IMG/VR virus record: IMGVR_UViG_3300037193_002766
Coordinates: 1-60,911 of that record
DNA: 60,911 nt
From: a virus
Strand: one strand, 5' to 3'
Part shown: in pieces, positions 15,754-60,911 of the stretch
How the letters are laid out: every line of letters starts with the position of its first letter
Position numbering within the stretch: position 1 is the first letter of the stretch
Made by a program: the position numbers and the translations under genes
Notes under the pieces: generated by a model
The model's input: only the letters and a program-made list of their open reading frames with translations
What the model was told of the DNA's origin: nothing
The model's database searches: none

Positions 15754-15999
15754 GTGCAGACATACTCAAGCCGGGACTGGCCGTACAGAGGGGAGCCCGC
15801 CGTGGCGTTTCGATGCTTGGCGACCGAATCGTGCAAGGACGGATACACCTGCCCCAGCATCTGGGTCGACGACGCCGACCCAGAGCACGTCGTGGTAGTC
15901 GGCCAGCTGATCGATCCAGGCCCAGACGTTCCGATGGCCGACGGCGAGCGCGCAGTGCGACTCCGCCGAGACACCGTCATCCGCGCCAACCTGGCGTAA
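15754..15999 (+). CDS. Hypothetical 81-aa protein, first gene of the plus-strand cassette
   Basis: GTG start after a lower-GC 217-bp spacer. No family recognised. Confidence 0.5.
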   Translation: MQTYSSRDWPYRGEPAVAFRCLATESCKDGYTCPSIWVDDADPEHVVVVGQLIDPGPDVPMADGERAVRLRRDTVIRANLA

Positions 16000-16004
16000 A
16001 GCGC

Positions 16005-16529
16005 ATGGACCTCAAGGATGTAGCTCGCCTCTTCGAGCAGTCAGCGAAGTCCGCGTTCCGTCTGGAGACGCTCCCGACCTACCTCGTGCCGCAGGAAGAA
16101 GACGCGCTCGCCGCATGGCGAGCCGGAGACCGGCGCCTGGACACACCCCAGGACAGCCCCTGGCTCGCCCGAATCAGGGCGAGCACCAACACCGGCTACC
16201 AATGGTCACGCGTCCACGTGCTGGACTACCCGCTCACCGAATACAGCGAGTTCGAGCTGTTTGGCTACCAAGCGCTGGTGGCGGCCGGCGAGCAGGTCTA
16301 CGTCGCAGACCGCGCCGACTCTCCCGAGTTGGAGCAGCTGCGCGAGGACTTCTGGGTCCTCGACGACGCCACCGTCATTCGCATGATCTACGACGCCAAC
16401 GGCCGGTTCCTGCAACCGGAACTCGTCGACGACATCGACCCCTACCTCGAAAGCCGGGACGTCGCGTTGCGTCACAGCGAGCCTCTCGCCGTTTACCTGG
16501 CGCGGCGCGAGCCGCGGCTCATCGCATGA
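16005..16529 (+). CDS. DUF6879-like protein
   Basis: 174 aa from ATG 16005 (MDLKDVARLFEQSAKSAFRLETLPTYL...). Motifs FRLET, RVHVLDYPLTEY and DFWVLDD match my recollection of DUF6879. Confidence 0.6.
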   Translation: MDLKDVARLFEQSAKSAFRLETLPTYLVPQEEDALAAWRAGDRRLDTPQDSPWLARIRASTNTGYQWSRVHVLDYPLTEYSEFELFGYQALVAAGEQVYVADRADSPELEQLREDFWVLDDATVIRMIYDANGRFLQPELVDDIDPYLESRDVALRHSEPLAVYLARREPRLIA

Positions 16530-17383
16530 ACCCCACGCCGGACGACAAGGCGAGGCTCGCGTCGACGCTCAAGAATCTCCGCGTCGACGCCGGACTCTCG
16601 ACGACCAGGCTCGCTGGCGTGTTGGGCTGGTCGCAGTCGAAGGTCTCGAAGACCGAGACAGGGCGCACCATGCCCGCGCCGGACGACGTGGCCGCGTGGT
16701 GCCGCCAGGTCAACGCGCCCGCCGGGGTGCGCGAGGAGCTGGTCGAGATCGCCGCAGCGGCCGCGGCTCAAGCCACGGAGTGGCGTCGCGAGCTGGCGCC
16801 CGGCCGTCGTCGCAAGCAGGACGACATCCGGCGCATGGAGCACAAGGCGTCGGTGATCCGGGTCTTCGCGCCGGACGTGGTCGTCGGTCTCGCGCAGACC
16901 AGGGCGTACGTGGAGAAGATGTTCCGGCTCGGCCGCAAGATCGGGCCTGTCGACGAACCGGCCGAGGATGTGATCAACGCACGTCTCGCACGCGCTGAGG
17001 TGCTCGACCGCACGGACAAGGTGTTCGTCCTGCTGATGGGCGAGTTCGCGCTTCGCCGGACCCTCATCCCCGCCGAGGAGATGCGGGCACAGATCCAGTG
17101 GCTGATCGAACTGTCACATCGGCCGAACATCGACGTCGAGGTCATCCCGTTCGCGGCCGAGGAGAAGGTGCACCAGTACAACGGGTTCGCGATCTTGGGT
17201 GACCCGGATGTCGACGATGAGGCGATCGTGCTCGCCGAGACTCTGACGCGCGGTCTGAGCATCCGTTCGAGTGAAGAGATCCGGGAGTACATCGAGCACT
17301 TCGACGCCCTTCGTGTCGCCGCTATTCGGGGCGATGAGCTGCGGGAATTCCTTCAGGAGGTCATCGACGGGCTCCCCAGGTGA
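16526..17383 (+). CDS. XRE-family HTH regulator with DUF5753 domain (WhiJ/Scr1-like)
   Basis: 285 aa, ATGA overlap with the upstream gene. HTH LSTTRLAGVLGWSQSKVSKTETG. DUF5753-like IRVFAPDVVVGLAQTRAY and FALRRTL. Confidence 0.8.
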   Translation: MNPTPDDKARLASTLKNLRVDAGLSTTRLAGVLGWSQSKVSKTETGRTMPAPDDVAAWCRQVNAPAGVREELVEIAAAAAAQATEWRRELAPGRRRKQDDIRRMEHKASVIRVFAPDVVVGLAQTRAYVEKMFRLGRKIGPVDEPAEDVINARLARAEVLDRTDKVFVLLMGEFALRRTLIPAEEMRAQIQWLIELSHRPNIDVEVIPFAAEEKVHQYNGFAILGDPDVDDEAIVLAETLTRGLSIRSSEEIREYIEHFDALRVAAIRGDELREFLQEVIDGLPR

Positions 17384-27256: not shown

Positions 27257-27771
27257 TGTGCTGCTCCCTTCCTCTGGCGGTAACGCCGTGTGGCCTCGGC
27301 GGCACGGGCCTTCTGCTCCGGCGACTTCTCCCTCCCCTTCTCTCGATCGCACGCTCGACATCTCCGTGCGCCGCTGGGTCGGATGTGCGTGTTGGTCTCG
27401 TCGTAGGGGTGGTTCCGTGGGCAGTGCGTGATGGATCGCTGGCGGTTGCCGTTGACTTGGCCGACGATCCCTCGCAACGCGTTCTCGGAGGGCGTGACCT
27501 CCTCAAGGTGGCGCGGGTTCACGCACGCGGGCGTCCGGCATAGGTGGTCGGTGTGCATGCCATTCTCGGGCAAGCGGCCGTGCTCGAGCAGGAAGGCCAC
27601 GCGATGCGCGTTGACCATCCCGCCTGCTCGCCCACCCAGGCTGAACCTGCCGTAGCCGTTGTGGTCACGCTTCGCGATCCACAGCCAGCAGTCGTTTTCG
27701 TCGACCTTCTTCACCTTGGGCCAGAACCGTGTGGCGATCTTCGCCAGGTCCAGCCCGATGACAGTGGTCAC
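27253..27771 (-). CDS. HNH endonuclease
   Basis: 172 aa. NAHRVAFLLEHGRLPENGMHTDHLCRTPACVNPRHLE. The first nine residues duplicate the RuvC N terminus. Confidence 0.85.
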   Translation of the reverse strand: MTTVIGLDLAKIATRFWPKVKKVDENDCWLWIAKRDHNGYGRFSLGGRAGGMVNAHRVAFLLEHGRLPENGMHTDHLCRTPACVNPRHLEEVTPSENALRGIVGQVNGNRQRSITHCPRNHPYDETNTHIRPSGARRCRACDREKGREKSPEQKARAAEATRRYRQRKGAAQ

Positions 27772-28217
27772 GCCTTCACCTTCCGCAGCTCGGCGAGCAG
27801 GTCGTCCAGCTCGCCCGGCGTGATCAGGACGTCGCGTGCTCGTGCACCGTCCGCCGGGCCGACCACACCAAGTTCGTGGAGCCGGTCGAGGATGCGGTGG
27901 CTTTCCGCGAACTTGACGCCCAGCCTGCGCTGCAGGAACGACGCTGATCCGAACTGGGCGCCGACGACAAGTTCGGCGGCCTGGATGATCTGTTCGTTGG
28001 TGGGCATGGGAGGTTCCTCCTCGAGGAGGCCGCGGCGGAGTGCCTCGGCGACGGTGTGGGTGATGTGGCGGGTGCCGAGCGCGCGGGCAGCGTGCTGGCA
28101 GCGGTGCTTGGCGGCGTTCTCGCTGATGCCGAGCTGCTCTCCGGATGTGCGGTAGGTGTGGCCGTCGGCGTAGAGGCGGAGCACCGCGACCTGCTCGGCG
28201 GTCAGCACGGGCCTCAC
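27768..28217 (-). CDS. Fusion of LuxR-type HTH and FtsK-gamma-like winged helix
   Basis: 149 aa from GTG 28217. LTAEQVAVLRLYADGHTYRTSGEQLGISENAAKHR, followed by AAELVVGAQFGSASFLQRRLGVKFAESHRILDRLHELGVVGPADGARARDVL. Confidence 0.7.
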   Translation of the reverse strand: MRPVLTAEQVAVLRLYADGHTYRTSGEQLGISENAAKHRCQHAARALGTRHITHTVAEALRRGLLEEEPPMPTNEQIIQAAELVVGAQFGSASFLQRRLGVKFAESHRILDRLHELGVVGPADGARARDVLITPGELDDLLAELRKVKA

Positions 28218-28543
28218 GACGTGGCCTCGGCGTACGTGTGGCGCGCGGGCTCGATGCCAGTGGCGTCGATCAAGCACACGTTCTGCTCGACGTTCCACAG
28301 CGACGCAGGGAACCCGCACCAGCCGTCGTACGTGTGCTCCTGCAGAAACTCGCCGGCTGCACGTGCGATCGGCAGGTGTTCGGTGCACGTGGCGAGAGCG
28401 ACCGCGCCGTAGGCGGGGTCGTACGTGCGCAGGTGCATCGTGGCGGGCTTTCCGCACTGAGGCTCGCCTGGGCGCAGGCTGTAGACGCAAACGGCTCGGT
28501 GCTCGGTGCTTTCGCCGCCGACGCGGGGAAGTTCGTCGTTCAC
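28214..28543 (-). CDS. Hypothetical protein
   Basis: 109 aa, GTGA coupling at both ends. Confidence 0.6.
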   Translation of the reverse strand: MNDELPRVGGESTEHRAVCVYSLRPGEPQCGKPATMHLRTYDPAYGAVALATCTEHLPIARAAGEFLQEHTYDGWCGFPASLWNVEQNVCLIDATGIEPARHTYAEATS

Positions 28544-37431: not shown

Positions 37432-37803
37432 CTAGCGCGCGTAGGCGCGGAGGTTGGCCTTGTCGAGCAGCTCGTCCGCGGTGATCGCGTACGCCGCCTC
37501 GTCCCACAGCTGCCAGTAGGTCGCGTTGGGCGGGTCGGTCGGGGCCGGGTGGTACGAGTCGGCCTCGAAGGCGGCCTTGTCGTCGGTGAAGTCGGGCTCG
37601 AAGCCGCGGGCGCGCCACTCGACGAGCAGGTGGTCGCGGATCAGGTCGTAGGCGGCCTGGTCGATGTCGTCGCGGAAGCCGGCGACCCACTCGAAGCCGT
37701 AGCGCTCGCGGAGGTCGACGATCGCGGGCTGGTCGCTGTTGTCCCAGGCGTAGGCGGGGCAGTCGATGACCTTGATGCGGGGTTCGGTGGTCGTGGTGGT
37801 CAT
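37432..37803 (-). CDS. Hypothetical protein, first gene after promoter copy A
   Basis: 123 aa, RBS GGAGAC. Confidence 0.6.
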   Translation of the reverse strand: MTTTTTEPRIKVIDCPAYAWDNSDQPAIVDLRERYGFEWVAGFRDDIDQAAYDLIRDHLLVEWRARGFEPDFTDDKAAFEADSYHPAPTDPPNATYWQLWDEAAYAITADELLDKANLRAYAR

Positions 37804-37836
37804 CGAGGTCTCCGTAGGTTCTGCGGCTGCTGTAGT

Positions 37837-37871
37837 GCCTACATTACGCCTACAAAACGCCTACAAACAAG
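37837..37871 (-). promoter_or_regulatory. 35-bp promoter/operator cassette, copy A (identical to 46787-46821)
   Basis: gcctacattacgcctacaaaacgcctacaaacaag, three GCCTACA boxes 11 bp apart. The minus strand reads TTGTTT...TAATGT. Confidence 0.6.
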
Positions 37872-38012
37872 CCTCCGTGACACTTTCGTGTCTCGCCCGC
37901 AGGGGTCCAGATCGCCGCCGCACGCCTCATGACCTGCGGTGCATCCCATCGCCCGCATATTGCGCGAACCGCCTACACCGACCGGTCGCCGGTCGCGGTG
38001 CCGGGTTCGTCT

Positions 38013-38308
38013 GCAGGGTTTGGTGCAGGGTTTGCAGGGTTTGGGTTGGTGGATGCAGGGTTTGCGGCTGGTGTGGAATTTGTGGGTTGACCTGGGGTTT
38101 GCAGGGTTTGCCGGGTTTGCAGGGTTTGTTTTTGACCTCTACGTGTGGTGTGCGCGTGCGCATGTGCGCGTGTGCGCGCAGTGGCGGCGCCAGAAACCCT
38201 GCAAAGCCTGCAAAGCCTGCAATGTGCTGGTCAGGGGTGGTTTGGGTGGCGTTTGCAAACCCTGCATCTGGGCGGGAGAAACCCTGCGGGTAACCCTGCA
38301 AACCCTGC
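38013..38308. repeat. Iteron field: six GCAGGGTTTG direct copies, then seven inverted CAAA[C/G]CCTGC-type copies
   Basis: Plus-orientation copies start at 38013, 38025, 38034, 38055, 38101 and 38119, with partial copies at 38094 and 38112. Inverted copies start at 38193, 38202, 38211, 38256, 38278, 38290 and 38299. Confidence 0.85.
38148..38180. repeat. 33-nt perfectly alternating purine-pyrimidine tract (GTGCGC-type repeats)
   Basis: gtgtgcgcgtgcgcatgtgcgcgtgtgcgcgca at the centre of the iteron field. Confidence 0.85.
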
Positions 38309-38318
38309 GGCGCGTGGA

Positions 38319-38336
38319 TGTAGGCGCTGTGTAGGC
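38319..38336 (+). promoter_or_regulatory. Two TGTAGGC boxes (11-bp spacing) abutting the start codon of the 38339 gene
   Basis: gaTGTAGGCgctgTGTAGGCggATG. Same box as in the 35-bp cassette, in opposite orientation. Confidence 0.5.
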
Positions 38337-38338
38337 GG

Positions 38339-38929
38339 ATGCTGAGGTGCGACGATGGCCGAATGGAGCGCTTCTTCGTGTCCCTGCCGGTCGACCCCTG
38401 CTCGTTGTTCGGCTACGACGAGGCTGGCGTTCGTACGTTCACGCGGAATGTCGAGCGGATGGCGGTCGAGGAGCTGGAGGGGCGCTTGGGCGTCGGTCAC
38501 CGTGAGCAGATCGCGGTGCAGTGGACGGCTCGTGTCCGCGGTGCGGGCGGGGAGATGGTCGAGGCGTTGTGGACGCCGCCCGCGTATGTGAAGGGGTGCG
38601 GGATGTTCACGTGCACCGCGTGGGTCGTGGATGAACCGCACCTGCTCGGTGGCGCGTTCGCGCTCTCGCCGGCCGAGGCCAGTAATCCTGTCGTCGTGAT
38701 GAGTGTTGCTCGGCTTGCCGATCAGCAGCTGGAGGTCGACGCGGCGAAGGCGGGCCAGGTGATCACGAGTCGCCCGGATCCGACGTGGACGATCGAGCGT
38801 CGGTCGGAGGACGGCGCGATCGCTGAGGAGCGTTGGCAGCCGGGGGAGTCCGTGGTGGGGGCTCTGCGCGTGGTTTATCGGGCTGAGGCGATTACGGCGC
38901 AGCTGCCGGCGGCATGGGTGGGGGCGTGA
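38339..38929 (+). CDS. Hypothetical protein
   Basis: 196 aa, plus-strand island next to the iteron field. Confidence 0.55.
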   Translation: MLRCDDGRMERFFVSLPVDPCSLFGYDEAGVRTFTRNVERMAVEELEGRLGVGHREQIAVQWTARVRGAGGEMVEALWTPPAYVKGCGMFTCTAWVVDEPHLLGGAFALSPAEASNPVVVMSVARLADQQLEVDAAKAGQVITSRPDPTWTIERRSEDGAIAEERWQPGESVVGALRVVYRAEAITAQLPAAWVGA

Positions 38930-39372
38930 TGGATGAGCTGGTGACGTGGCTGCGCGAGCAGATCACCGAGGATCGGCAGTTCGCGACGGAGGCCATGCAC
39001 GACCGCGACGGCACGTGGACGCACGTCGTGACACCCGGCGGTGACAACAAGGTGGTCGACGATCTCGGCTATTCGGTGAGTGGTCACTACGACATCGACA
39101 GCGAGCCGTGGTGGACGCAGCCACACATCGCTCGGCACGACCCGCGCACCGTGCTGGCCGTGTGCAACGCGTACACAGCGATCCTCGACCGCTACGAAAC
39201 CAGCCTGCGTATCCCTCTCAGCAAAATCTCCGGTTTCGTGCGCGGGCAGGACGACGGTTACCAGCAGGCGTGCCTCGACGCGATTCGTGACATTGCCGCC
39301 TCGATGGCGGACCGCCCTGGCTATCGAGCCGAGTGGCGGCCTACGACGCCTTTGTCCACTGCGGACTGCTGA
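38929..39372 (+). CDS. DUF6221-like protein
   Basis: 147 aa from ATG 38929 (TGATG overlap). HIARHDPRTVLAVCNAY...ADRPGYRAEWRP. Confidence 0.65.
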   Translation: MDELVTWLREQITEDRQFATEAMHDRDGTWTHVVTPGGDNKVVDDLGYSVSGHYDIDSEPWWTQPHIARHDPRTVLAVCNAYTAILDRYETSLRIPLSKISGFVRGQDDGYQQACLDAIRDIAASMADRPGYRAEWRPTTPLSTADC

Positions 39373-40108: not shown

Positions 40109-41686
40109 TCAGGATCCCACGGCTTCGACGCGGTAGCGCCAGGTCGCGGTGCGGGTCTTACCGCGGGTGAGCCGCAGGTGCTGCCCGGCTTCGTTCGTTC
40201 CCAGCACGGCGCCGCGCTTGCCGGACAGCAGCCGGCCGAGCGACTTCGGGCTGGTGAAGTGGTCGATACCAAGCGGGAGTTCGGAGATGGTCTTGGTGTG
40301 CTGCTCGCGCAGGACCTTGAGCAGCTCGCTGGCCGTGACGCCTTCGACAGGCACGTCGCCGTTCTCTTCGAGCTGGGCGTAGGTGAGGGCGAACTGCTCC
40401 CACAGCTGCGACTCCTCGTCGACCTGGTCGAGCTGTTCTTCGCGGCCGTGCATGAGGCCTTCGACTCCGGCGTTGCGGAGGATGCCGTCGATCACCCGCG
40501 TCCAGGCCTCGAAGGAGGGGAGCACGGCTTCGCCGTCGGGCATGCCGGCGGCGATCCACGCTTGGACGAGGGTGGCGAGGGCGGCCTGGATGTTGCCGCG
40601 GTTCTTGGTGGCCCAGCGGTCGAGGTCCTTGTGCCGCCAGGCGTTGTAGTCGCGGGGGTGCGGCTCGATGCGGATGATCATCGAGCGGCGGGACATCTCG
40701 GCGGACATGCTCATGCCGTTGCCGGTGATGACCCAGGCGGCCGGTGAGGCGAGTTCGATGTTGTCCGAGGTGCCGAGGATGCGTGCTTCCCAGGCGGGGT
40801 AGGCGGTGACGGCGGCGGCGAAGGTTCCGGAGTCGACGACGTCGTTGACGTTGTCGAAGATCATGACGGCGCGGCCCTTGCGGGCCTGGGAGACGAGCGC
40901 CTTGGCCCACTCGTCGGCGTTGGTCGGCGCGGTGGGCAGGGTGGCGTCGCCGATGGCGTGGCCGGTGACCATCTTGGTGAGCTTGGTTTTGCCGGATCCG
41001 GCGCTGGGGGCGTCGAACACGTAGAGCGGCCGGGGACCGTTGATCAGCTCGGAGACGAGCGGGGTCAGCATGAGGCCGAGGACCGCGGGCAGGTCGCCGA
41101 CGGGGTTGGTGAACAGGAAGTCGCCGAGCAGTTCTTCACGGAGCAGCTGCAGCGCGGCCTGGACCTCGTCGCCGGTGGGGTTCTCGGGGACAGGCGGGAG
41201 GTAGAGGCCGGCTTCGGGGGCGTAGTAGGTGCTGGTTTCGGGGATGTAGCCGGGGCGATCGTGGTAGGCGCCGTCGGCGTCGAAGACGGGGCACATGGTG
41301 ACCTGCTTGAGCCGCGGCACGCTGAGTGCGTGGGCGCGGTCGTAGAGGCCGGAGAGGTCGTCGAGGGAGGGCTTGGCGGGCATCATCGCGTAGCCCTTCT
41401 TCGCGTCGAGCTTGACGGTTTCGACCATCGCGACGACTCGGCTGCGGAACGCGCTGGCCGTCATGTCCCGAAGGGACGGTGCCTCGCCGTCGCGGCCGGG
41501 GTCGACCTCGACGAGGCGTCCGCCGCGGATGTAGACGAGCGGGTTGCCGTTGAGGTCGTTGCGTTCGCGGATGTGCCTGGTGAGTTCGACCTCCAGTTCG
41601 TGGAGGTCCCTGTCGCTGATCACGACTCGTGGCCTGTCCGTCTCGTCGGGTTCTGGTGCGGGCACCGGTGCGAGGTGCGTGGTCAT
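40109..41686 (-). CDS. SF3-type replicative NTPase/helicase (P4 alpha / VirE C-terminal-like)
   Basis: 525 aa. Walker A APSAGSGKTK, Walker B VMIFDNV. Confidence 0.65.
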   Translation of the reverse strand: MTTHLAPVPAPEPDETDRPRVVISDRDLHELEVELTRHIRERNDLNGNPLVYIRGGRLVEVDPGRDGEAPSLRDMTASAFRSRVVAMVETVKLDAKKGYAMMPAKPSLDDLSGLYDRAHALSVPRLKQVTMCPVFDADGAYHDRPGYIPETSTYYAPEAGLYLPPVPENPTGDEVQAALQLLREELLGDFLFTNPVGDLPAVLGLMLTPLVSELINGPRPLYVFDAPSAGSGKTKLTKMVTGHAIGDATLPTAPTNADEWAKALVSQARKGRAVMIFDNVNDVVDSGTFAAAVTAYPAWEARILGTSDNIELASPAAWVITGNGMSMSAEMSRRSMIIRIEPHPRDYNAWRHKDLDRWATKNRGNIQAALATLVQAWIAAGMPDGEAVLPSFEAWTRVIDGILRNAGVEGLMHGREEQLDQVDEESQLWEQFALTYAQLEENGDVPVEGVTASELLKVLREQHTKTISELPLGIDHFTSPKSLGRLLSGKRGAVLGTNEAGQHLRLTRGKTRTATWRYRVEAVGS

Positions 41687-42282
41687 GCGACACCGGTCCG
41701 GGAGGTGTCGGTGACGGTGGGGGCGTCGGCGCCAGTGGCGCGGCGGTGCCGACGCCAGAGGTCACCGAGCGCCGCGCGGTCGCCCAGTTCTTGCTCGAAC
41801 TCGGGAAGGCCGCGTTCCTCAGCGGCTTGGGTGATGCGGATGGCGTACTCGATTCCGGCTCGTCGGTAGGCCTGCTCAAGAACGACTCCGGCGAGCCACG
41901 CGGCGTTGGACACCGCGGCGTGGAACTTCGCGTCGATGAGCCTGTCGGTGAGCAGCTGGAGGTTCGGGGTGCTGATGCCCACGGTTTGGGCGTGGGCGAG
42001 CACGGTGGCGCACGTAGGGGTGACGCCGTGGGCGACGAGGTCGCGGATGAGGGCGAGTGCGTGCTGCTCAACCTGGCCGTCGAGGTCTTCGTCGCGGACG
42101 AGCTCGAGCAGCGGGGTGATCTCGGCGGGCGGCATGTTGAGCAGGCAGCCGACGAATTCGGTACTGGCGGAGAGGATCGCGGGGCCGGAGCAGGAGGTGC
42201 GGGGGTCTGCGCGGGCGATGGGGCCGCGCGCGTTGTGAGTCGCGGCGGAGGTGTCCCGCTCGGTGCGGTTGGTGCTTGTCAC
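41683..42282 (-). CDS. DnaB N-terminal-domain-like protein
   Basis: 199 aa. FVGCLLNMPPAEITPLLELVRDEDLDG...ALIRDLVAHG pattern. Confidence 0.5.
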   Translation of the reverse strand: MTSTNRTERDTSAATHNARGPIARADPRTSCSGPAILSASTEFVGCLLNMPPAEITPLLELVRDEDLDGQVEQHALALIRDLVAHGVTPTCATVLAHAQTVGISTPNLQLLTDRLIDAKFHAAVSNAAWLAGVVLEQAYRRAGIEYAIRITQAAEERGLPEFEQELGDRAALGDLWRRHRRATGADAPTVTDTSRTGVA

Positions 42283-42362: not shown

Positions 42363-42530
42363 CTAGCTGTGGTGCGGTGTGCGGTGCAGTGAGACGAGTT
42401 CGTCGAGGTCGACTTCCCAGCCGGGGTGGGTCGGTGTTTCGCGGTGGCGGCCGGGGTTGCCGGCGACGGCCATCTGGTGGTGGTAGGCCACGGCAATGAG
42501 GAGGAAAGCGGCGAGCAGTGCCGCGATCAC
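42363..42530 (-). CDS. Small membrane protein
   Basis: 55 aa from GTG 42530 (GTGA coupling). VIAALLAAFLLIAVAY TM segment. Confidence 0.45.
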   Translation of the reverse strand: MIAALLAAFLLIAVAYHHQMAVAGNPGRHRETPTHPGWEVDLDELVSLHRTPHHS

Positions 42531-43015
42531 GCGGCACGCTCCGGGTCGAACAACGCACGTCCCGAGCGAAGCCTGTTCCGCGACTGGTTCAGGCCGATGA
42601 TCTCCAGCCGAAGCACGTCGCGTGCGGCGCGCGGGTCGTAGTCCGGCCCGAACCACGGGAAGGGGTCTTCGCATCGCCCGAAGTCGAGGTGCTCCTGGAG
42701 TTCGAGGGCGATCTGGGCCTGCGCCTGCTTGATGCGGAGGAAAGGCTGCAGGTCGGAGATGACCTGGACGGCGTTGACGCCGTGCCGCACCCACTGGAAC
42801 TGCGGCCTGTGCTCGGGGTTCTTCGGGGTGAAGCACCCGACGTTCCCGCCCCAGATCGACGCCGCGAGGTCGTGGGGCTGGCGTCGAGTCCCCGCGATGC
42901 CGACCTGTGCGGCGTGGTACGCAACGCCCTTCCGGACGGAACGAGTGATCGTGATGTAGCCGTCGCTGTCGATGACGCCAGCGAGGTAGGCGAGGTCGAG
43001 AGGATCAGGCGACAT
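42527..43015 (-). CDS. LAGLIDADG-type homing endonuclease-like protein
   Basis: 162 aa from ATG 43015. LAYLAGVIDSDGYITI motif. Confidence 0.7.
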   Translation of the reverse strand: MSPDPLDLAYLAGVIDSDGYITITRSVRKGVAYHAAQVGIAGTRRQPHDLAASIWGGNVGCFTPKNPEHRPQFQWVRHGVNAVQVISDLQPFLRIKQAQAQIALELQEHLDFGRCEDPFPWFGPDYDPRAARDVLRLEIIGLNQSRNRLRSGRALFDPERAA

Positions 43016-45971: not shown

Positions 45972-46439
45972 CTACGAGGCGCGGTGCGCGGGCTGGTAGC
46001 GGATCGGCTCGTCGTGACCAGCGAGGTAGTCGAGGATCACGTGGCCAGGCAGGAACAGCCGGGTGCCTCGGCGCTCTGCCGTGATCTTGGCGTCAGTGCC
46101 GTGGGTGAGGCGGTGCGCGATCTGGTACGGCACGCCGAGGAATGCGGCGAGGTTCTTGAGGAAGTACTCGCGGTCCGGATCGATGACCCGTCGCGGGTCG
46201 GTGATCCCGTCAGGCGTGCGGCCGAGGATGTCGACGATGGTCGCGCCGCTGACGAGGTACTGCTTGCCGGTGTTGCGGGTCGGCAGCTCCCCGTTGCGGA
46301 TCAACCGCCACACAGTGGACGGTGAGGCGTCGAAGACCTCGATCGTTTTCTCCGCGCTGTAGGCGACCTGCGGAACGTCCTGGTCGGCGTTGCCGAACAG
46401 GATGGTGCGGATCACCGACGGCGTGCTGGGGGTGCTCAT
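45972..46439 (-). CDS. Excisionase/MerR-type HTH DNA-binding protein
   Basis: 155 aa. STVWRLIRNGELP. Confidence 0.55.
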   Translation of the reverse strand: MSTPSTPSVIRTILFGNADQDVPQVAYSAEKTIEVFDASPSTVWRLIRNGELPTRNTGKQYLVSGATIVDILGRTPDGITDPRRVIDPDREYFLKNLAAFLGVPYQIAHRLTHGTDAKITAERRGTRLFLPGHVILDYLAGHDEPIRYQPAHRAS

Positions 46440-46783
46440 GCCACCTCCTGTGCCGTCTTCGACCGCGGGCCGGGCAGGGCTGCGGTGGCGTGCTCGATGC
46501 GCTCGCTGAGGACGGCCACCTGCTCGCGGAGGTCATCGAGCTGCTCCTCAGCGGCCGGGTTGTCGGCGAAGTCGGCGCGCAGTTTGTCGGCCGGGATGCC
46601 GAGCGCCTTGGCGAGGCGGACGACGGTCCGCGGCCGAGGCCGGCGGCGGCCCGCTTCGAGGTGCTGCACGCCGGACTCGGACATGCCGGCGCGTTGGGCG
46701 AGCTCGGCGAGCGAGAGTCCGGCCTTGGTGCGGTAGTGGCGGAGGCTGTGCCACCGGGGCGGTGGCGCGGTGGGCGGGTTCAT
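46436..46783 (-). CDS. Cro-like XRE-family HTH regulator, probably leaderless
   Basis: 115 aa. LSLAELAQRAGMSESGVQHLEAG. The ATG lies 7 nt after the TAATGT -10-like hexamer of promoter copy B, with no SD. Confidence 0.75.
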   Translation of the reverse strand: MNPPTAPPPRWHSLRHYRTKAGLSLAELAQRAGMSESGVQHLEAGRRRPRPRTVVRLAKALGIPADKLRADFADNPAAEEQLDDLREQVAVLSERIEHATAALPGPRSKTAQEVA

Positions 46784-46786
46784 GCC

Positions 46787-46821
46787 GCCTACATTACGCC
46801 TACAAAACGCCTACAAACAAG
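46787..46821 (-). promoter_or_regulatory. 35-bp promoter/operator cassette, copy B (identical to 37837-37871)
   Basis: Exact repeat read directly. Lies in the divergent CI/Cro-like intergenic region. Confidence 0.65.
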
Positions 46822-46894
46822 GGTTGGGTCGATCTTGTTGCTCCACCTGCCCTAACCGGGCGTGACACGGCCTACCAGGGCGTAGCGGTCTGCG

Positions 46895-47422
46895 ATGCTT
46901 TGCGGGACGATGCGCCCCATGAGCGACACGGCACACGAGTGGCCCCTGGGAGAACGCGTGCGTGAGGCGCGCGGCGAGGAGTCGCACAAGTCGGTCGCTC
47001 GCCGCGCCGGGATCGGGGCGGAGACGGTCTGGCAGATCGAGAACGGGCGGCGCCGCGCCGTCGGGCCATTCAGTCGGCCTAAGCCGGACACGATCGCGAA
47101 GCTCGCGCGGGCGCTGGGCATCCCCGTCTCGGAGGCGCTGACCCTCGCCGGGTACAACCCGGAGAACTACGTCAACCTGCTGGACGAGGGTGTCGAAACG
47201 GCGCTGGCCCGGAAGATGGCGAAGCTTCAGCCGGAAGAGCAGCGGGCTCTCGAGATCCTCGTCGACGGCCTGCTGGTGGCACGCGGGCACATGAGTGCCG
47301 GGGGCGGCGCCACGGTCGACGTCGTGGTGCGGTCCGCTGGGGAAGAAGTCAAGACCGACGTCCAGTCTCACGGCGAACCGGTCAACGGTGCGGTGCCGTC
47401 GCGGCAGCCGCAGGAGGACTAG
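46895..47422 (+). CDS. CI-like XRE-family HTH repressor candidate
   Basis: 175 aa, with alternative starts at 46910 and 46919. SVARRAGIGAETVWQIENG. Divergent from the cro-like gene. Confidence 0.7.
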   Translation: MLCGTMRPMSDTAHEWPLGERVREARGEESHKSVARRAGIGAETVWQIENGRRRAVGPFSRPKPDTIAKLARALGIPVSEALTLAGYNPENYVNLLDEGVETALARKMAKLQPEEQRALEILVDGLLVARGHMSAGGGATVDVVVRSAGEEVKTDVQSHGEPVNGAVPSRQPQED

Positions 47423-47894: not shown

Positions 47895-48043
47895 AATCGT
47901 TTGTCAGAACATGATCGTTCCAAACGATTACCCAACGCCTACAAGCAAGAACGTGCGGTAGGTTAGCGCAAGCGTGCACACGGTCAACGCAACGGACACG
48001 CAACTCTGGGGCAGGTCAACGCGACACTGTCGCGGATCAACGG
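47895..48043. promoter_or_regulatory. attP left arm with repeat elements (candidate arm-type sites)
   Basis: 9-bp inverted repeat AATCGTTTG/CAAACGATT (47895-47903 and 47921-47929). CCCAACGCCTAC at 47931-47942. [G/A]TCAACG-containing repeats starting at 47982, 48014 and 48035. Confidence 0.5.
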
Positions 48044-48084: not shown

Positions 48085-48117
48085 CCAGTCTGGGTTCGAC
48101 TCCCAGTGGGGGCACAA
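48085..48117 (+). other. Putative attP core: 3-prime fragment of a tRNA gene
   Basis: T arm CTGGG-TTCGACT-CCCAG (48090-48106), acceptor strand TGGGGGC (48107-48113), discriminator A. About 100 bp upstream of the integrase start. Confidence 0.65.
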
Positions 48118-48127
48118 GAAACCGCAG

Positions 48128-48196
48128 GTAGGCGGGCTAGACACCCGCCTACAAAGCGCCTACATTGGTCGCACCCAACGAAAACCCAACGCTTAC
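48128..48196. promoter_or_regulatory. attP right arm / int control region
   Basis: Inverted repeat GTAGGCGGG-7 nt-CCCGCCTAC (48128-48152). GCCTACA boxes at 48147 and 48158, 11 bp apart. CCCAACG at 48174 and CCCAACGCTTAC at 48185. Confidence 0.55.
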
Positions 48197-60770: not shown

Positions 60771-60911
60771 GTGATGGGCACCGCACCGGAGAGGAACCGG
60801 GCGGAGATCGGGAAGGCGAGGTTGTTACGGGCGCGTGAGAGTTGGTCGGTAGACCTCGACGCGGAAGTTCACGACGTACTCGTGCCGGCCGTTGGCGTCG
60901 CGTCCCATGTA
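60771..60911. repeat. Terminal direct repeat, copy 2 (identical to 1-141)
   Basis: Read directly. Confidence 0.95.

Follow-up and report, generated by a model that had tools for sequence, protein, structure and literature searches.

A candidate replication origin of opposed iterons and its SF3 helicase in a temperate siphovirus-like phage of a high-GC host

The intergenic region and its repeats

The virus record IMGVR_UViG_3300037193_002766 of IMG/VR was analysed over positions 1 to 60,911, and this whole stretch of 60,911 bp is referred to below as the window. Between its divergent genes 37432-37803 (-) and 38339-38929 (+) lies an intergenic region of 535 bp (37804-38338), in which two opposed arrays of a short repeat (iteron) flank a central segment. 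An initial annotation, made from the sequence alone, had put this region forward as a candidate origin of replication. Comparison with relatives and the predicted fold of a helicase encoded at 40109-41686 support that reading, and the segment 38012-38308 is probably the origin of replication of a phage, of the type served by a self-loading superfamily 3 (SF3) helicase-initiator such as the Rep proteins of staphylococcal pathogenicity islands (SaPIs) or the alpha protein of P4.

The repeat GCAGGGTTTG occurs exactly six times on the + strand (starts 38013, 38025, 38034, 38055, 38101 and 38119), and the two partial copies that had been mentioned lie at 38110 (one mismatch; GCCGGG) and at 38092 (two mismatches, weak). 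Seven copies of its complement follow, two of them exact (38256 and 38299), four with one mismatch (38193, 38202, 38211 and 38278) and one with two (38290). The starts of the six exact + copies and of the seven complementary copies agree with the initial annotation. When up to one mismatch is allowed, 13 of the 15 matches in the window fall within 296 bp (38013-38308), seven on the top strand and then six on the bottom strand. In 100 dinucleotide-preserving shuffles the mean was 2.87 matches per window and the maximum 8, so that 0/100 reached 15. No second cluster of GCAGGGT or of GCAGGGTTTG is present anywhere in the 60.9-kb genome. The repeats had been described as iterons of 10 bp; the repetition is borne out, the unit length is not, since the true period is 9 bp (GCAGGGTTT), and this period also accounts for the one-base head-to-tail overlaps that had been noticed between copies in both arrays.

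The inner four copies of the left arm are in tandem at 9 bp with their TTT ends directed at the centre, and the T-rich iteron ends of both arms face this 64-bp centre. The two arms pair in register as one imperfect palindrome of 308 nt (z-score of single-strand folding, -10.3), with the inner 40-nt arms, 38088-38127 and 38194-38233, 80% complementary to each other. The region is non-coding, and the open reading frames (ORFs) predicted in it are spurious, as had been supposed: the guanine plus cytosine (GC) fraction of third codon positions stays at 0.62-0.68 whichever frame is read, whereas the flanking genes have 0.82-0.99. An Rfam search of the region returned no family, the sole match being a sub-threshold small nucleolar RNA, and consensus scans of it detected neither a sigma-70 promoter nor a terminator.

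The T-rich patch and the alternating purine/pyrimidine tract described in the initial annotation are both present in the centre (Table 1). Windows of 25 steps that start at 38115-38125 have duplex free energies between -32.9 and -33.8 kcal/mol, where the mean of the genome is -40.8 (standard deviation 2.5). Only about 0.1% of the genome windows are weaker than -33 kcal/mol, and the T-run belongs to roughly the 0.1-0.3% least stable duplex segments. The centre is otherwise GC-rich, the 14-bp patch being its only AT-rich part. The alternating tract is the longest run of its kind in the genome, the next longest being 15 nt.

Conservation in close relatives

Close relatives were defined by helicase homologues 74-83% identical to that of the window, and four of these were set in context: L020, L021 (on the same contig as L014), L022 and L023 (contigs are designated here by L numbers). 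A search with an alignment of nine helicase sequences found only two relatives in IMG/VR and no close relative among the GTDB genomes; an alignment of 40 helicase sequences was too divergent for a back-translation search, and a scan of viral contigs with the 123-aa flanking protein returned no relatives.

All four relatives keep the same layout: opposed arrays, an A5/T5 run, an alternating purine/pyrimidine centre, TGACC motifs by the inner repeats, and then an operator cassette, which is described below. The A5/T5 run is at the same position in all five relatives. In the five-genome alignment of the origin span, 68/91 (75%) of the iteron-core positions are invariant, against 49/211 (23%) of the non-core positions (Fisher p = 8e-17), and the alignment contains insertions and deletions of 1, 2, 7, 10 and 11 bp, which are not multiples of three. 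The initial annotation had proposed conservation of the iteron sequence, as opposed to its coding capacity, as a check in relatives. The conserved cores, the unconserved spacers and the lack of a coding signal suggest that the iterons are conserved as binding sites and not as code.

The bases that follow the core differ between relatives. The three bases after TGCAGGG are TTT in the window and L022, TTT, TCT or TGT in L021, and GAT, ATT or GTT in L020 and L023, and the flanks change in both arms together (GCAGGGTTT in the window and L022 versus GCAGGGGAT/GTT in L020 and L023). In the helicase, the C-terminal 105 residues are the most divergent part of the protein, and L020 and L023 are 80.6% identical to each other there; over the N-terminal 120 residues L020 pairs with the window (87.8%) and L023 with L022 (88.1%). 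The pattern in L020 and L023 is compatible with iterons and a C-terminal domain that reads them evolving together.

Iterons next to helicase genes in other lineages

The occurrence of the iterons outside the close relatives was followed with an exact 19-mer scan of IMG/VR and metagenomes. Most of the 120 matches of the metagenome scan are isolated two-unit matches without an array and are probably fortuitous, and the 19-mer alone is not diagnostic. Arrays of three plus three opposed GCAGGGTTT copies lie directly after genes for prim-pol-helicase fusions of the 936-aa type in L010, L017 and L105; the window helicase, aligned along its whole length, shares 27% identity with the helicase half of the 936-aa protein of L017. 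The same iterons lie between the 3' end of a helicase gene and a prim-pol gene in L009 (52% GC), and 8 bp after a zf-CHC2 primase-helicase gene in L128/L083. The gap between gene and array is 0-30 bp in L010, L017, L105, L009 and L128. In L004 the iterons follow an ORF of 666 aa whose C-terminus, which has no database match, looks P4-like by reading of its sequence, and in L104 and L145 (a contig of 24% GC) the array is present with flanks too short to place it. The TGCAGGG core is reused in contigs of 24-73% GC, and the helicase module is the only protein common to the window-type and L017-type loci that have the same iteron. Literature searches found no paper with the iteron 15-mer and no relevant paper that pairs the 8-mer with the word "iteron".

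Helicase genes of the same family are also followed by other iterons. In L162 and L163 (helicases 45% identical) 13-15 copies of CATTCACC/GGTGAATG begin about 90 bp after the gene, and in L024 (42% identical) 11 copies of GGTTAGGAC lie directly after it, as do GTGAACC in L155, GTGAATGT in L157 and GTGAACGT in L160. The L157 array also has a T-run and an alternating purine/pyrimidine centre of 28 nt, and T-runs are found in L017 and L160 as well. The longest alternating run of the available sequence lies at the centre of the origin in L022 (29 nt), L157 (28), L021 (25), L105 (23), L020 (18) and L017 (16), as it does in the window. Because such a centre is kept across lineages with different iterons, it is probably functional; it may form Z-DNA, provide flexible pyrimidine-purine steps or be a site of priming.

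Shorter repeats were met at L003 5170, L011 6448, L015 1239 and L071 1167, phage contigs of proteobacterial GC content, where 2-4 tandem GCAGGGTTT units in a single orientation sit between a primase-similar gene region and a ParB-like/methylase gene. These arrays may be a related but differently built site.

The helicase and the reading of the iterons

The helicase has no match in Pfam or NCBIfam, and a profile search against the PDB sequences gave none. Its PHROGs matches are a family annotated as DNA polymerase/primase and two whose function is unknown. Its AlphaFold model has a predicted local distance difference test (pLDDT) score of 89.5, and a Foldseek search with the full protein matched the PrimPol of African swine fever virus, E5 of monkeypox virus and D5 of vaccinia virus, PriRep5 of SaPI5 and the C-terminal region of the NrS-1 polymerase, with E values of 1e-8 to 1e-6 (about 1e-7 for PriRep5). 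The product of 40109-41686, initially annotated as an SF3/P4-alpha-like NTPase, is accordingly a D5-like SF3 helicase by predicted fold. Its homologues usually come as fusions with primase domains, of the Prim-Pol, NrS-1-type polymerase, DUF3854, Toprim_3 or zf-CHC2 kind; several of them carry PF22763, and one is named NrS-1 polymerase family protein. Searches of Pfam, NCBIfam and PHROGs reveal no primase domain in the window protein, which aligns to the helicase half alone of the fused relatives.

The last approximately 110 residues of the helicase (about 412-525) are modelled as helices followed by a three-stranded sheet (beta-hairpin), and it is proposed that this C-terminal domain reads the iterons. 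Homologues encoded by cultured phages in INPHARED, for example Caulobacter phages C1, C2 and CcrBL9, roseophage DSS3P8 and Actinoplanes phage phiAsp2 (Pas55), bear the label hypothetical protein or, erroneously, PE-PGRS family protein. The helicase module of phiAsp2 lies within a putative polymerase fusion of 1415 aa.

Several observations weigh against this pairing of helicase and iterons, or against the origin itself. The array of the window is 1.8 kb from the helicase stop codon, with four ORFs between. No obvious iterons lie downstream of the gene in L156, L158 and L159 or in alphaproteobacterial chromosomal homologues. The C-terminal domain modelled alone finds as its best matches the winged helix of BLM RQC and plant O-methyltransferases, at non-significant E values of 0.2-0.4, and its assignment as a winged helix rests on topology. 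The motif PK[SA][LF]G[KR], tried as a predictor of iteron type, failed, for P0009/P0010 (from L162 and L163) have it and yet use GGTGAATG. The joint inheritance of C-terminal domain and iteron type in L020 and L023 could reflect mere physical linkage, and the cumulative GC skew has no inflection at 38 kb. As to the first of these points, in L014/L021, where helicase identity is 74%, some 70 bp separate the stop codon from the array, while in L020 four small co-directional genes are inserted between helicase and origin, and an additional reverse-oriented DUF6221 cassette is inserted there in the window, L022 and L023. Given these insertions, the interval looks like a hot spot, in which adjacency is ancestral and the 1.8-kb gap of the window arose later.

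The iterons might instead be read by a different protein, either the 199-aa product of 41683-42282, whose gene is upstream of, and translationally coupled to, that of the helicase, or a host factor, the helicase being recruited to the origin secondarily. The unproven winged-helix assignment would leave room for such a reader; the gene for the 199-aa partner is present in all close relatives, where other lineages have a Prim-Pol gene, and an identical TGCAGGG core across helicases that are just 27% identical is unusual for co-evolving pairs of initiator and iteron. However, the 199-aa protein has no detectable similarity in the L017 and L024 modules, yet L010, L017 and L105 share the iterons; a host factor is hard to reconcile with the spread of the motif over contigs whose GC content runs from 24% to 73%; and the iteron type switches between helicase lineages. 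A separate reader is therefore unlikely. The 199-aa protein was also considered as a cryptic primase or shared binder and was rejected as such, having no similarity to the Prim-Pol of L024 or to the fusion protein of L017.

Operator-like repeats at the edges of the region

A second, independent repeat, CGCCTACA, which is absent from the initial annotation, occurs in the region at 37847, 37858 and 37970 (+) and at 38319 and 38330 (-), and 15 times in the window, where 1.2 occurrences are expected. The cassette at 37837-37871 ranks among the two segments of the region with the weakest duplex and is conserved in L020, L022, L023 and L014. A near-identical cassette lies at 46786-46820, between the divergent XRE-type helix-turn-helix (HTH) genes 46436-46783 (-) and 46895-47422 (+), and further CGCCTACA sites are found within 46784-46830, at 47936-47943 and as a pair at 48146/48157 (48146-48164) ahead of the integrase gene. 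Judging from these positions, the CGCCTACA cassettes are probably operators of the immunity repressor that overlap early promoters; they are not part of the iteron system or of the origin proper.

It had been suggested as an alternative that the iterons themselves are an array of regulator sites, here for the divergent promoters of 37803 (-) and 38339 (+), and not an origin. The repeats are indeed located between divergent genes, and dense operator arrays occur in other actinophages. These promoters have, however, their own operator motif, CGCCTACA, in common with the immunity region and with the sequence upstream of the integrase gene; the arrays lie between co-directional genes, without a divergent promoter, in L014/L021, L020, L010 and L017; and the motif follows helicase genes in unrelated phages. 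Since the separate motif is at the edges, the regulator reading applies to the edges of the intergenic region and not to the iterons, for which it is very improbable.

Scarcely credible is a centromere-like or translocase-guiding site, either a parS or a set of sites for the LuxR-HTH/FtsK-gamma protein encoded within 27768-28490 (-): the genome does encode an FtsK gamma domain (PF09397, E 4e-15), gamma domains read G-rich 8-mers, the FtsK-orienting polar sequence (KOPS) of E. coli, GGGNAGGG, shares GCAGGG with the iteron when N = C, and opposed repeat arrays are typical of some parS sites, but the arrays track helicase genes, an integrase is present, and neither ParA nor ParB, which the partition-site alternative of the initial annotation would call for, was found among about 40 ORFs scanned, a set that does not cover every small ORF.

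The gamma-domain protein was also rejected as the binder, since none of its 34 database homologues could be matched, by the length of its longest listed contig, to the contigs of L020, L021, L022, L023, L010, L017 and L009 and tblastn gave no match in the available flanks of the relatives that share the origin. It combines an HTH of the LuxR/GerE type with a C-terminal FtsK gamma domain, and its real start is probably the internal M of MVRPVL... A stand-alone gamma-domain protein is unusual in a phage, and the homologues are mostly on short metagenomic contigs.

Table 1. Features of the probable origin region and the associated helicase gene
Feature	Coordinates	Strand	Remarks
Cassette GCCTACATTACGCCTACAAAACGCCTACAAACAAG, 35 bp, three GCCTACA repeats 11 bp apart	37837..37871	-	Upstream of the leftward operon from 37803
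Small hairpin/palindrome GACAC-TTTC-GTGTC	37879..37892		Adjoins operator cassette; conserved in 4/5 relatives
CGCCTACA copy (37970-37977), then palindrome CGACCGGTCG and CCGGTCG (37979-37996)	37970..37996		Outer border of left arm; conserved in 4/5 relatives
Left iteron arm	38012..38128	+	Eight (T)GCAGGGTTT(G) copies: triplet, singleton, tandem quadruplet; cores invariant among five relatives
Auxiliary motif TGACCTGG	38088..38095	+	Columns invariant in five-genome alignment
T-rich patch GTTTGTTTTTGACC	38124..38137		Candidate first melting site
Alternating purine/pyrimidine tract, perfect 33 nt, CG and TG/CA steps	38148..38180		At centre of symmetry
Right iteron arm	38193..38308	-	Seven inverted copies: tandem triplet (38193, 38202, 38211), singleton (38256), triplet
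Two inverted CGCCTACA copies, 11 bp apart	38319..38337	-	Directly upstream of rightward gene 38339-38929
SF3 (D5-like) replicative helicase, proposed initiator, 525 aa	40109..41686	-	Fold model

The auxiliary motif, of the form TGACC(T/A)G, recurs at 38133-38137 and in the opposite orientation at 38226-38233 (CTGGTCAG). Related sequences, GCAGGTCAG/CTGACCTGC, occur near the inner iterons in L162 and L163, whose origins have other iterons, and in L105 and L014.

A possible mechanism of initiation

If the region is an origin read by the helicase, induction would derepress the early operon from 46783, and the helicase would be made. Its C-terminal domain would recognise the 7-bp core TGCAGGG together with 2-3 lineage-specific flanking bases, and the 8 + 7 sites, with their T-rich ends inward, would position two helicase assemblies, opposite in orientation, to the left and right of the 64-bp centre. 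The duplex would then open at the T-run (38124-38137), at the 33-nt purine/pyrimidine tract, or at both, and the helicase rings would encircle single strands and move apart. As the ORFs scanned yielded neither a primase nor a DNA polymerase domain, priming and synthesis are attributed in this scheme to host enzymes. With CGCCTACA operator cassettes at both edges of the region, outward transcription in both directions, and probably the firing of the origin as well, would be tied to the immunity switch.

Two features are unusual for an iteron origin of the helicase-initiator type, namely the Z-DNA-prone centre of 33 nt and the recurrence of the TGCAGGG core across contigs of 24-73% GC. A bolder and rather doubtful extension is that opposed TGCAGGG iterons with a long Z-DNA-prone tract define a class of origins, shared by phages and mobile elements of different phyla and not described before, in which one DNA-reading module keeps the same 7-bp specificity at 24-73% GC, and that a B-to-Z transition or weak pyrimidine-purine stacking replaces the AT-rich unwinding element in high-GC hosts, helped by negative supercoiling from the repressor-controlled divergent transcription.

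Comparison with known origins

The basic design of opposed iterons with an easily opened centre is already known from P4 and the staphylococcal pathogenicity islands. In SaPIs the origin is immediately downstream of rep; its 6-12 iterons flank an AT-rich centre, with two or more to each side that point in opposite directions, and the C-terminal winged helix of Rep reads these iterons while the helicase loads itself without a loader (PMC9371898). The window is similar in that an SF3 helicase-initiator, with PriRep5 as a fold match, is encoded in the same module without a separate loader gene, and in that short iterons flank a putative central melting region in opposite orientations (8 + then 7 -). 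The probable origin also lies 3' of the helicase gene, which it abuts in the relatives L014, L010, L017 and L105. The differences are considerable: SaPI iterons are 5-6 bp long and present in 6-12 copies, whereas those of the window are 9-10 bp with a 7-bp core and number 15; the SaPI centre is an AT-rich block, whereas that of the window is mostly GC-rich alternating purine/pyrimidine sequence with a 14-bp T-rich patch; the SaPI origin abuts rep, whereas that of the window is displaced from the helicase gene by 1.8 kb; no resemblance to SaPI Reps is detectable in the sequence of the window helicase (no PDB sequence match); and SaPIs are satellites, whereas the window is a temperate phage of a high-GC host.

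P4 alpha, known from the work of Ziegelin, Lanka, Calendar and co-workers, belongs to the D5-like helicase class, and its C-terminal origin-binding domain recognises short repeated octamers. P4 ori/crr had been named as an example of the design, which is apt for the helicase class and the short repeats and fails for the fused primase and the crr-like cluster. P4 alpha combines primase, helicase and origin-binding domain and P4 has a second cis-acting cluster, crr, whereas the window protein is without a primase domain and its genome is without another motif cluster. The iteron sequence of P4 also differs from that of the window. The iterons of L155, L160, L162 and L163 (GTGAACC, GTGAACGT, GGTGAATG) resemble the complement of the P4 type I iteron, TGTTCACC.

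The SF3 initiators of eukaryotic viruses, large T antigen of simian virus 40 (SV40) and E1 of papillomaviruses, load as two opposed hexamers on inverted repeats by an AT tract and a palindromic melting element. There the repeats are central and the melting elements flanking, whereas in the window the repeats flank the centre, and the origin-binding domain of these proteins is unrelated and N-terminal to the helicase. To our knowledge few actinobacteriophage origins have been mapped. Origins of the lambda type have their iterons inside the initiator gene, whereas the array of the window is intergenic and without a coding signal. Iteron plasmids have unidirectional iterons, a dedicated Rep and DnaA boxes, whereas the arrays of the window are opposed; the ORFs scanned in the window include no member of a Rep family, in a search that did not extend to DnaA boxes. 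In parABS systems the genes for ParA and ParB accompany the repeats, and neither was found among the roughly 40 window ORFs scanned. The NrS-1 polymerase (PMC7102993) and the primase-helicase fusions of mobile elements (PMC5862659) have a homologous helicase module, which in the window stands alone; literature searches brought up no origin layout of the opposed-iteron kind for NrS-1.

A rule that opposed short repeats come right after the helicase gene would make it possible to predict the origins of many phages not in culture and of many integrated elements, and the predicted origins would supply minimal replicons for high-GC hosts. Natural pairs of close helicases with different iterons (TTT versus GAT among the close relatives; GGTGAATG in the 45%-identical outgroup) could show how SF3 initiators read DNA, and the conserved alternating purine/pyrimidine centre is a testable candidate for an unwinding element that is not AT-rich. 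The helicases belong to a family that has no Pfam or NCBIfam model and is misannotated in cultured phages.

The genome and its other features

The ends of the window are identical over exactly 141 bp (1-141 = 60771-60911), implying that it is a complete genome of 60,770 unique bp, circularly closed or terminally redundant. The genome has 68% GC and is that of a temperate siphovirus-like phage of a high-GC host. Its genes include those for terminase, portal, minor capsid and tape-measure proteins and for a tyrosine integrase. It also encodes a protein with an Rv2525c-like glycoside-hydrolase domain and the actinobacterial hallmarks WhiB, DUF6221, DUF5753/HTH_31 and DUF6879. Among the cultured phages of INPHARED neither the origin region nor the 18 kb around it has a blastn or megablast match.

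To the left of the origin region a leftward operon, with its first gene at 37803, runs to genes for WhiB and a C5 methylase. To the right, a rightward cassette of two genes (38339-39372) converges on the leftward early operon of replication and recombination, which encodes the XRE-type HTH protein (46783), an HTH_17 protein, an RNase T-like exonuclease, YqaJ, RecT, a DUF5131 homologue, the 199-aa protein and the helicase (41686-40109). At 42527-43000 (-), where the relatives have the DUF5131 gene, there is an ORF without a Pfam match in which a LAGLIDADG-like motif (LAGVIDSDGYITI) was recognised by eye; a homing endonuclease gene may have entered the DUF5131 gene here or settled beside it.

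Just upstream of the integrase gene, 48093-48115 resembles the T-arm of a transfer RNA (tRNA) (GGTTCGACTCCCAGTGGGGGCAC). ARAGORN finds no tRNA in the window, and the sequence is a candidate attP core matching the 3' end of a host tRNA gene. At 15813-17383 (+), on the strand opposite to the structural genes, lies a typical actinobacterial two-gene cassette, apparently cargo, that consists of a DUF6879 gene and an HTH_31/DUF5753 gene.

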